The position numbers were made by a program. A stretch of DNA of 11,222 bases from a virus (taxonomy: Duplodnaviria; Heunggongvirae; Uroviricota; Caudoviricetes), in the IMG/VR virus record IMGVR_UViG_2703719366_000012. One strand, 5' to 3'. Each line of letters opens with the position of its first letter. Position 1 is the stretch's first letter. Below are positions 1 to 3,000 of this stretch, piece after piece.

Positions 1-3000
1 GGATTTTTTCCGCCGGTAATCCCAGAGAGCGACGCGATACTGCCTCAGGTAATGCGTCCACCACCTGATTGCAGACTGCCCACCAGGATAATTCAGCCAG
101 CGATAATTCCCGCTCCTGCGTGCCATTCATTACATGGCGTATGACGTCAATCATCCAGGCTGTCAGATTTTGTTGAGTAAGTTGCTCAAGTGATTCGGAG
201 GTCTGGTCGCGCAGCTGGTTGTCGCAGTGCCAGCACAACACCATTGCGCCAGCACCGTAACTGTGAATAACGGTTTCGCTGTGATGATAATCGCCGTGTG
301 GCCACTGGCAGGATTTCACGTGACGTAATAACCAGTCAGACAGTGCACCAGCGCCGCCAGCTGCACGAATCACCCGCTCATCGCTGAAAAATGGCAGCAG
401 TGATTTATCTTCCGCCAGCGGCTGGCGAACAGCAGGAACCGCTCCAGATGGCAGCGCCCGCATGTTTTTCGGTTCCGGCTCCACCAGCACCCTGCCGCGA
501 TGAAAAACTGGCAATGATTCACGACCGGGCTTAAGGACCACCAGCCCGAGTTCCGGAACCAGAACAGGTCGAAGTAATACCCGCACATTACCTCCAGACG
601 CGCTGACGGTAGCAGGCATGTGTCCGTGGCAGATGTGCACGAACAGGAAGATATACAGAAACGGTCCAGGTCAGACGATCAGCGTTCAGACTCCGCTCCA
701 CACGGACACCGCGACGCAGATACGCCTCTTGAAGCATATCTGCCTCATCGATCGTACAGAACAGATAGTGAAACCAGCCATACTGAGGCGCACGAAAACG
801 CCTCCCCTGCTTAATTTCCGGGTCGGCTTCAGAATTGTGGGATTTTATGTGTTGTGTCATCGGATTCTCCGGTGACAGCAGGTGTCAGTTGTTCAGGCTG
901 ACTGCGCGAATTGTAAGGCAATACGCCGGAATGTACAAACAGAAAACCCGTCAGTAAGACGGGCTTAACAAGCAGGGGCGGTTACTTTAATAATTTCAGT
1001 GCCTTTACATCAACTTCAACACTGCTCAGGTCTTTATCAATTTCACCCTCAATTCTTACTTTGTCTTTCGGAGAAACATTCTGCCCGGCCCATACGCTGT
1101 CATCAATATCCGTGACAATTGTCCCGCTATTGTCACGAAACTCATAACGTTCATCACCCACTTTTTTAACGATGCTCCCTTCAAGGATAACCCATGCATC
1201 ATCCTTCAGTTCTTTTGCCTGCGCTACTGTTGAACGCTCTGCTTCTGGCCCCTGGAAACCACCCTGCTGTGCAAAAGCGCCAAAAGACACACCGGAAATA
1301 AGTGCTGCAATCAATACCTTTTTCATTCATAGTCCTCTTTCAGAGATGAACATTCAAACAGCATTTTCAGTATGGTAAAGCGCGGGTGCGTTGAGGATGC
1401 CTGACACATCAGAGGTGGCGGGAGATTACTCCCCCGCCTGGTCTCTTACTTCTCAGATTCGTAGTCTACGAAGACAGCGACCTCCGTCTGACCGGTTCGG
1501 ATTCGCACCTCGCAGAGGTCTTTCCTCGTTACCAGTGCCGTCACTATGACGGTTAAACAGATGACGATCAGGGCGATTAACATCGCCTTTTGCTGCTTCA
1601 TAGCCTGCTTCTCCTTGCCTTTCGGCACGTAAGAGGCTAACCTACATGTGTTCAGCATGGATTGAGCCTCAGATTAATGTTAAGCGTCTTGCAGGACGCG
1701 TAATGTTAACTGGGGCTTTTCTCTATCTGCCGTTGGTGTTCATGCCCGAGGCAGATAGCCTCAAGCACCCGCAGCAATTCTACTTAACTATCCTTTTCCC
1801 GCAAACCGTTTTTATCCCCAGCGGCAAATCGAATACACCACCAGCGCCACCGCCATCGCAATTCCTACCGTTGTGAATGCTTCAGGCCAGGTCATTGATT
1901 CACCTCCTGCGGCGGTTCTGGTAGCGACATCCAGTGGGTTGCTTGCCTAAGATCATTACCCGGACTAACTGCTATACCTCCGCGCCGGAACGTGCCTCCG
2001 AGATAGCGTGCGGAATATATTAATGGCCCAGCCTCGCTATCGATATTCATCGAAATAAGCACGTTCTGGCTCTTTTCAGGCATTCGCTCAGTACAGCTTA
2101 TCCAGCCATCCAGAGTTATCGGAGATCTGGTTGACGTTTCCGAGATTTCCCGAAAATTGTTGGTTGACGAATTCTTATTTTCCCGAAAGTTTCCGGCCTG
2201 AAGCATGGCGACGCGGCAGGCGTTCCAGCCATCAGCATATGTTTTAGTTACACCGTCGAGATGGCAGGTAAGCAAATCCATTTCATCAGGCACTACCATT
2301 GCTATCGGCTCTGCTTCCAGTGATGCCAGCGCGATACGAAACACATTAGCCAGCAGGCTGTCTGAAGACTTGTTATCGTGCGCCGAGTCGCTCAGGAAGC
2401 CTGTGATGTATGATTTAATCTCCGCGCGTTCTCTGGTAATAGTGCTCATATCAGTTTTCCTTATACGGATTAATTTTATTGTGCAGTGCGCTGAATGATT
2501 CCCATGTCACATCGGTATATAGCTCAATAACTGGTTCAAATGTCCTTCCAATTATCCAGACCAGTAATAGCGGGGATATCGGTATCATCAACACTATAAA
2601 CAGAATGAAAAACAGAAACTCTGTTGTTCTGCTCTTTCGTGGGTAATTTTTTTCTAAATAATGTTTCATTTCTTACCGCCCTTTCGGGCGGCCTCCTGAT
2701 GTTCTGAGGGTGCAGGAATCCCTCCGGTTAAGGATTTAATAAAAATCGTTTCTGATTTAAATCTTCAGTATTTAGTTGTTAGTTGGTTTATCGCCTTTAT
2801 GCTTCAGCCTTATTTCGCAACCAGACACAAACCGGGCCATCTTCCGTATCATGAATGGAACCAATAAACCAGCCATCGCCCTCTGGTCGTTCCGGTTCCC
2901 ATGCAGAAATATCAGCATCACACGCATCAAGGTCAGCACATCCTTCATCTCTGAAGCAGAGGACGTATTGAAGATTATTTTCCTCCATCCAGGCGTTAAA

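Follow-up and report, generated by a model that had tools for sequence, protein, structure and literature searches.

A predicted periplasmic BOF/YgiW-family gene joined to hok/sok in an Escherichia coli O157:H7 lambdoid prophage: a candidate second cistron of accessory character

Results

A BOF/YgiW-family gene lies directly downstream of hok

We analyzed IMG/VR virus record IMGVR_UViG_2703719366_000012, an 11,222-nucleotide stretch of tailed-phage DNA (hereafter the window, to which positions refer unless a locus is named), and in it a minus-strand gene that lies just beyond a hok/sok type I toxin-antitoxin (TA) locus (Table 1). This gene, which we call the BOF gene, encodes a small protein of the BOF/YgiW family that is predicted to be secreted. 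Its open reading frame (ORF) begins with ATG, and the 114-residue product matches the Pfam family BOF (PF04076; E = 1.9e-33, 115.1 bits, cut-off 25.8) and the NCBIfam family NirD/YgiW/YdeI (NF033674; 3.2e-40, 136.8 bits, cut-off 35), while its score against TIGR00156 is narrowly over the curated cut-off (112.3 bits, cut-off 108.15). The sole relative with a solved structure is E. coli YgiW (PDB 1NNX), which the sequence matches at 3.5e-29. We modeled the protein with AlphaFold2 from 35 homologues and obtained predicted local distance difference test (pLDDT) values of 90-98 across the domain (residues ~31-114) and low values for residues 1-22. The top Foldseek match of this model was again 1NNX (E = 2.4e-11, target template modeling score 0.91, 53% identity), whose five-stranded OB-fold barrel it shares, and the lower-ranking matches were other OB-folds, such as RPA and Stn1/Ten1. 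These matches bear out the first-pass annotation of the window, which had assigned the gene to the OB-fold proteins of the YgiW/YdeI family from the sequence alone. The gene was already known: it has been annotated for years in phage 933W and in RefSeq, where the exact window protein is entry WP_000756596.1, "NirD/YgiW/YdeI family stress tolerance protein". PHROGs places it in phrog_1230, a group whose function is given there as unknown.

Table 1. Features of the hok/sok-BOF locus in the window.
Feature	Position	Strand	Basis
Coding sequence of the 114-residue BOF/YgiW-family OB-fold protein (predicted periplasmic)	982..1326	-	ORF list, profile matches, AlphaFold model, dN/dS
Predicted Sec signal peptide MKKVLIAALISGVSFGAFA, codons 1-19, predicted cleavage after AFA	1270..1326	-	n-/h-/c-region analysis, pLDDT, alignment
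Shine-Dalgarno sequence AAGAGGA, 6 nt 5' of ATG	1333..1339	-	read from sequence
Intrinsic terminator, hairpin AAGCCCGTC-TTACT-GACGGGTTT then T-rich tail	936..966	-	terminator scan, folding
Spacer between hok fbi and BOF ATG; no hairpin terminator, weak promoter candidate	1327..1379	-	scan, scoring, folding
fbi element, hok mRNA 3' end; pairs with 5' tac (1775-1759)	1380..1396	-	RNA folds 1780-1370, 1780-940
mok frame enclosing hok (1446-1601), hokW type	1446..1658	-	Pfam HOK_GEF (1.1e-22), translation comparison
Rfam sok match: hok mRNA leader and sok target	1596..1770	-	RF01794, 113.5 bits (gathering score 59)
Candidate hok promoter TTTGCG-17-TAGAAT, just upstream of tac 5' end	1777..1805	-	inferred from motif; below scan threshold
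Whole hok/sok-BOF cassette as putative mobile unit, ~1 kb	935..1895	-	comparison with 933W and other contexts

The N-terminus of the protein resolves into an n-region MKK, an h-region VLIAALISGVSFG with a mean Kyte-Doolittle hydropathy of 2.2, and a c-region ending in AFA before QQ. This pattern, which the earlier reading had also noticed, is that of a textbook signal peptidase I signal as predicted from sequence, and it is kept across the family alignment. The predicted mature protein has 95 residues (~10.5 kDa) and is acidic (pI 4.6) and cysteine-free, and it would be exported to the periplasm. We rejected a lipoprotein reading, as cysteine is missing from the window protein, and the one found in its variants comes too early in the sequence and has a poor lipobox around it.

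The signals that flank the ORF are conserved as well. The Shine-Dalgarno sequence (AAGAGGAC) is unchanged across all four diverged variants. On the other side of the gene, the hairpin at 966-944 has 9 pairs, 5 of them G-C, is followed by TTTTCTGTTTG, and folds at -14.3 kcal/mol. A single hairpin is no excess over the 1.9 expected by chance in the region of the terminator scan; its position after the BOF stop codon is the same in all diverged variants, and one of these (locus L005) carries a compensatory change from G.T to C-G. A rho-independent terminator belonging to the gene, as first proposed, is thus retained, and the interval originally assigned, 936-1326, comprises exactly the ORF and this terminator.

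The BOF gene occupies the place of the usual hok terminator

Upstream of the BOF gene, the window contains the overlapping Hok and Mok frames, the sok region and the tac-fbi pairing that characterize hok/sok type I TA systems, and its Hok protein is identical to HokW of 933W. The folded hok mRNA shows a long-range tac-fbi helix (z-score -7.8), and an 841-nt transcript model that extends through the BOF gene (1780-940) keeps the tac-fbi domain alongside a distinct BOF domain and the terminal hairpin. In its overlapping frames, sok match and tac-fbi fold, the locus resembles the canonical hok/sok systems of R1 (parB) and Qin (hokD). It differs from them in what follows fbi: a strong hairpin terminator stands there in four of five loci without a BOF gene, whereas the hokW-type locus has an extra cistron of 345 nt.

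This arrangement is invariant among the loci that we compared. In each of the 51 fetched loci with upstream sequence, hok/sok is directly 5' of the BOF gene, and in all 51 the BOF gene starts 47-50 nt past the fbi end of a hokW-type locus. Since many of these loci are near-identical copies of O157 prophages, the number of independent observations is nearer five. Conversely, a hok 3' segment of at least 95% identity is almost always accompanied by the BOF gene.

We then compared the sequence beyond fbi with that of five sampled hok loci that have no BOF gene, namely L003, L004, L081, L082 (K-12 Qin) and L083 (a plasmid). Three of them (L003, L081 and L082) carry a terminator, AACCCGCTTCGGCGGGTTTTT, immediately past fbi that folds at -12 to -15 kcal/mol; what is left of it in L004 has decayed and folds weakly, and the plasmid locus has a different hairpin slightly further downstream. 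This post-fbi terminator is missing in all five BOF-linked variants, where the next 48 nt fold at -3 to -4 kcal/mol (merely -2.9 kcal/mol in the window). Therefore, the first terminator after the hok promoter in BOF-linked variants is that of the BOF gene, and the gene appears, from this comparison, to have taken the place of the terminator that usually follows fbi.

The BOF gene seems to have no promoter of its own

The first-pass annotation had suggested that the gene might have an independent promoter in 1327-1416. This suggestion was not upheld, as no minus-strand site between 1327 and 1460 passed our consensus scan. The best-scoring minus-strand candidate, TTTACC (1379-1374)-16-TGtTTGAAT (1357-1352), is weak, has no near-invariant -11 A, and is not conserved, its -10 element reading GTTCAT in diverged variants. 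The spacer upstream of the BOF ATG is, apart from the Shine-Dalgarno sequence, about as diverged as the ORF. The BOF gene thus seems to be without a convincing promoter of its own. Because the hok terminator is replaced and no convincing promoter was found, read-through from the hok promoter is the most likely route of expression. We also noted a promoter-like sequence on the plus strand, TTAACA-18-AATAAT (965-994, 10/12), that points into the 3' end of the BOF gene in the antisense direction; its -35 element is not conserved in 933W, L005 or L009, about two such sites are expected by chance, and we rejected it as a probable chance match.

The phage-type protein belongs to the family but is distinct from YgiW and YdeI

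The protein resembles E. coli YgiW (VisP in Salmonella) in its Pfam and TIGR families, OB-fold, signal peptide, GGFxGP motif and acidic mature form. It differs from YgiW in having only ~53% identity to the 1NNX chain, and other chromosomal-type homologues are ~50-68% identical to it. Proteins of the phage-type clade are 113-115 residues long, compared with 127-134 for the YgiW type, are without the first GF..P linker repeat (14-20 residues), and have KDL where the chromosomal proteins have a conserved KDW. Furthermore, ygiW adjoins qseBC, whereas the phage-type gene adjoins hok/sok on mobile DNA. Identity, architecture and neighborhood therefore all speak against orthology with YgiW, and a score of 64.8 bits against the YdeI equivalog NF007471, below its cut-off of 179, does so for YdeI. 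From these comparisons, the protein is a family member and an orthologue of neither.

The cassette lies in a defective prophage and is shared with Stx-converting phages

Many E. coli O157:H7 chromosomes match the first 3.2 kb of the window at 100% identity, and in strain FORC_044 this region belongs to a defective lambdoid prophage, in agreement with the prophage setting that had been assumed at first. The minus-strand order there is cro, a YdaT-like gene, O (frameshifted in RefSeq), P, DUF1627, several small genes, DUF4014, DUF551, hok, the BOF gene, a gene of 90 codons (the 90-aa gene), DUF968, RusA, DUF1133, tRNAs, lysis genes and terminase. The gene therefore does lie where it was first placed, between hok directly upstream and the late-proximal genes, with the 90-aa gene, DUF968, RusA and the late region downstream. 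The FORC_044 prophage (L001) is judged defective because its integrase and RecE genes are truncated and its lysozyme and DUF6645 genes are frameshifted. The O-like replication gene, which RefSeq treats as a frameshifted pseudogene in FORC_044 (L001:18843-19885), is an open frame of 349 residues in the window (4843-5892, minus strand). Elsewhere in the window, a full-length DicF antisense RNA (8980-9031, plus strand; Rfam 75 bits, gathering score 48) sits in the dicB-type, immunity-proximal region of the prophage.

Comparison with phage 933W, which encodes the homologue L0136, delimits the mobile segment. The two DNAs are 97.3% identical over 935-1910 and their flanks are unrelated. The spacer, Shine-Dalgarno sequence and terminator of L0136 are the same as those in the window, and the protein, like that of VT2-Sakai/Sp5, differs from the window's at one residue (V78I). 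The 933W record describes L0136 as "similar to hypothetical YgiW and YdeI proteins", beside mokW, hokW and sokW, and RefSeq names the VT2-Sakai/Sp5 homologue 'YgiW/YdeI family stress tolerance OB fold protein'. The cassette of 933W is found close to attR, within the b-region, adjoining L0135 and a large tail-region gene, whereas that of the window lies in the nin region, between the DUF551 gene and the 90-aa gene, which DUF968 follows.

We found the cassette at ~98% identity in 45 deposited phage genomes, all of them Shiga toxin (Stx)-converting and of the 933W/VT2-Sakai type, and 548 of 5426 complete E. coli genomes, mostly of Shiga toxin-producing E. coli, contain at least one BOF gene copy (up to four per genome) at 95% identity or more. 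Copies that are more diverged also occur, as in a horse commensal. Among GTDB species representatives, the matches listed comprised only chromosomal YgiW-type genes, at no more than 51% identity. The outer flanks of the cassette across loci are of nin type, of 933W b-region type, mosaics of these, or a non-prophage chromosomal site. From these contexts, the hok/sok-BOF cassette appears to move as one unit among E. coli lambdoid prophages.

Two sets of loci illustrate the range of these contexts. In L005 (3379-4385) and in L006-L008, a hok/sok-BOF islet of ~1 kb belongs to no prophage and is flanked by a cytochrome c peroxidase gene and apbC-metG, and its BOF protein is 81% identical to the window's; because apbC-metG of these loci is only 87% identical to that of E. 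coli despite their E. coli label, we refer to their host only as an Escherichia-like lineage. The IMG/VR contigs L035 and L042 have mosaic flanks, one with a 933W-type upstream and nin-type downstream side and the other the reverse, and at some loci hok/sok is 91% identical yet the BOF gene 98%. Both the mosaic flanks and the unequal identities argue for recombination within and around the cassette.

The position after hok is a variable slot

Related prophages share the hok/sok block (1374-1895) with the window at 93-95% identity. The homology to two prophages without a BOF gene, L003 and L004, stops exactly at 1374 and resumes near 916 or beyond. Relatives hold other genes between the hok 3' end and the 90-aa gene, so we regard this position as a variable accessory slot. 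We compared the slot at 917-1373 with L003:673-2407, L004:2663-3055, L081:2227-2910 and L082:1887-2138. It is occupied by a RosmerTA defense pair in L003 (RmrA, 6e-105; RmrT, 5e-25), by an unrelated ORF of 130 residues in phage 689R5, by Doc-type TA genes, adjoined by TA genes of the RelE/ParE type, in O104:H4, and by rem in K-12 Qin. The post-hok position in lambdoid prophages thus looks like a cargo hotspot. The RosmerTA pair of L003, unlike the BOF gene, lies past the hok terminator and has its own TTGACA promoter.

Base composition also sets the gene apart from its neighbors. Total GC and third-codon-position GC (GC3) are 43.8% and 37.4% for the BOF gene, compared with 50.7% and 69.0% for hok, 52.7% and 50.5% for the 90-aa gene, and 50.2% and 52.2% for the DUF551 gene, a comparison that the first-pass annotation had advised. 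Because other nin genes are AT-rich too, this contrast lends only weak support to cargo status; the nin region is a GC mosaic of 36-57%, and we rejected GC content alone as a discriminator of cargo.

Finally, we estimated the ratio of nonsynonymous to synonymous substitution rates (dN/dS) among four variants of the gene (the window, 933W, L005 and L009; 77-99% amino acid identity). The ratio is 0.04-0.23 at dS values of up to 0.55, which argues that the gene is maintained by selection.

Discussion

The reading that we favor, with confidence slightly above even, is that hok and the BOF gene form a two-cistron cassette expressed in the lysogen by read-through from hok, and that the second product is a periplasmic protein carried as cargo for envelope-stress tolerance. 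The BOF gene would be the distal cistron of the hokW-type hok/sok transcription unit, with transcripts from the constitutive hok promoter running through it and stopping at the BOF terminator (966-944). Takada et al. (PMC8621323) demonstrated type I TA function for hokW-sokW of Sp5 and found hokW mRNA in Sp5 lysogens that had not been induced; with read-through, the BOF gene would therefore be expressed constitutively in the repressed lysogen. During lytic growth of the window prophage, the gene would also be read from pR.

Once exported, the protein would have a periplasmic role like that of YgiW, YdeI and SipA. YdeI/OmdA of Salmonella and E. coli and SipA of Vibrio cholerae, members of the same BOF family, provide the experimental basis for this proposal. 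SipA is a periplasmic protein that binds polymyxin B and LL-37 and interacts with OmpA, and cells require it to survive H2O2 and cadmium (PMC6370654). The same paper states that YgiW interacts with OmpF and YdeI with OmpD (citing Pilonieta 2009) and that mutants of homologues are sensitive to H2O2 and cadmium (citing Lee 2010). By analogy, the phage-type protein may act by binding compounds that are cationic or toxic, or by associating with porins of the outer membrane, and the host would thereby tolerate envelope stress better; it would then be lysogenic-conversion cargo and not a virion or lysis function. In the literature that we searched (L0136, ygiW with prophage or Stx, hokW, and expression in Phi24B or EDL933 lysogens), we found no experiment on a phage-type copy; a preprint on the Pas sRNA does no more than cite the hokW paper.

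Several points weigh against this proposal. The linkage could be explained by shared descent, as the variants that are independent in sequence number perhaps five. Transcription might still end at the tac-fbi helix, which a UUU follows, or the RNA might be processed there, and 1327-1379 may hold a promoter that is weak or needs an activator. In the window prophage, the BOF gene is in the direction of the pR operon, so some of its expression could be lytic only. The hok-BOF mRNA is predicted from sequence and the stress role of the phage-type clade from its homologues, to whose chromosomal YgiW-type members this clade is only ~50-68% identical, without the linker and with L for the W of KDW.

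How far the BOF gene is a moron depends on which part of that term is meant. The first-pass annotation had proposed it as a candidate moron, and its variable insertion slot, own terminator and base composition differing from its neighbors are those expected of one. Together with purifying selection, these features support an accessory, cargo character for the gene. As to the other part of the claim, the gene does not appear to be a free-standing moron: it is always joined to hokW-type hok/sok and occupies the place of the hok terminator, so the mobile, and probably the transcriptional, unit is hok/sok plus the BOF gene. The comparison with lambda is instructive in this respect. The bor and lom genes of lambda are described as expressed constitutively, from lysogen-active promoters of their own. 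The BOF gene is like them as an accessory gene for an envelope protein, predicted to be dispensable for phage growth, in a variable slot and with its own terminator, but no such promoter was found for it, and it seems to rely on the transcription unit of hok instead.

It is still conceivable, though we think it unlikely, that the gene is an autonomous moron, transcribed apart from hok from a weak or envelope-stress-regulated promoter in the 50 nt upstream. Besides the terminator, the slot and a GC3 below that of its neighbors, such a reading could draw on the TG-extended candidate TTTACC-16-TTGAAT at 1379-1352 and on the two-component control of chromosomal relatives (QseBC for ygiW; VC1638/39 for sipA). 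It has to contend with the missing -11 A and the GTTCAT of the diverged variants, with a scan that no minus-strand promoter passed, and with a spacer conserved no better than the ORF, and it leaves unexplained why the hok terminator is lost in every BOF-linked variant.

We regard it as improbable that the protein serves superinfection exclusion, by binding a porin or other envelope component from the periplasm and blocking adsorption or DNA entry of competing phages. Porins of the OmpF, OmpD and OmpA type serve as phage receptors. Family members contact all three, and the same slot elsewhere holds anti-phage or TA cargo (RosmerTA in L003; Doc and RelE/ParE in O104:H4). On the other hand, the protein matched no PADLOC defense model at an E-value of 0.01 or better, surface-exposed receptor loops cannot be masked from the periplasm, and we know of no BOF protein that excludes phages.

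A role for the BOF protein, or for its cistron as a long 3' extension, in tuning the hok system is less probable again. The extension could delay 3' trimming of hok mRNA, or the protein could contact the periplasmic C-terminus of Hok and so affect the timing of killing or lysis. All BOF-linked Hok proteins, those of the window (1446-1601) and its variants, end in AVFVDYESEK, whereas those of BOF-less loci end in AVFTAYEPEE (four prophage HokD proteins) or TVFTAYESER (the plasmid HokD of L083), a difference that may be a lineage marker or may reflect co-variation in the periplasmic tail. The change from VFTAYEPEE or VFTAYESER to VFVDYESEK, the invariant physical linkage and the lost hok terminator would all suit such a partnership, and one BOF family member binds small cationic peptides. 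In addition, hokW-sokW influences Sp5 release (PMC8621323), and the deletion used there could be polar on the BOF gene. Common descent of a single hok lineage explains the C-terminal difference, the linkage and the terminator loss equally well, however, and hok/sok works without a BOF gene, including in the plasmid constructs of PMC8621323; the interaction itself is putative.

A broader version of this idea, that the hokW-type cassette is a three-part module in which a periplasmic OB-fold protein is functionally coupled to Hok, is a long shot that we set out for what it would explain. If it were true, the BOF cistron and its terminator would set the rate of hok mRNA trimming and activation, and the BOF protein would bind the Hok C-terminus (of the VDYESEK type) or a porin, with effects on killing, lysis timing or phage exclusion. 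The invariant linkage and the lost hok terminator would then be accounted for, and the published phenotype of the hokW-sokW deletion would partly reflect the BOF gene.

Least probable of all is that the gene is an inert passenger, acquired once beside hok and now without function, since, although no phenotype is reported in the literature searched and the disease association described below is probably due to linkage with Stx2a phages, the frame is intact in every copy inspected, the low dN/dS holds at dS up to 0.55, and conservation extends to the Shine-Dalgarno sequence, the signal peptide and the family-invariant residues.

The proposed hok-BOF cassette also bears on an association with disease. 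In an Irish case-control genome-wide association study (2025), a gene named "ygiW_2" and a mokC-like gene group were linked to hemolytic uremic syndrome (HUS), with an adjusted odds ratio of ~5.5, and the two were flagged as a synergistic pair (PMC11950266). The paper itself names no locus; the pair is most likely the adjacent genes of the hok/sok-BOF cassette (982-1658 in the window). Because the cassette is carried by 933W-type Stx2a phages, linkage is the simplest account of the HUS signal, which does not have to be causal.

The gene and its family were already annotated, and what we add is the architecture of the BOF gene and its fixed two-cistron partnership with hok/sok. The gene is present in roughly a tenth of complete E. 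coli genomes and in 45 deposited Stx-converting phages. If it is co-transcribed with hok, as we propose, lysogens would produce the protein constitutively and a hokW-sokW deletion could have polar effects on the gene, and published work needs to be read with both points in mind.

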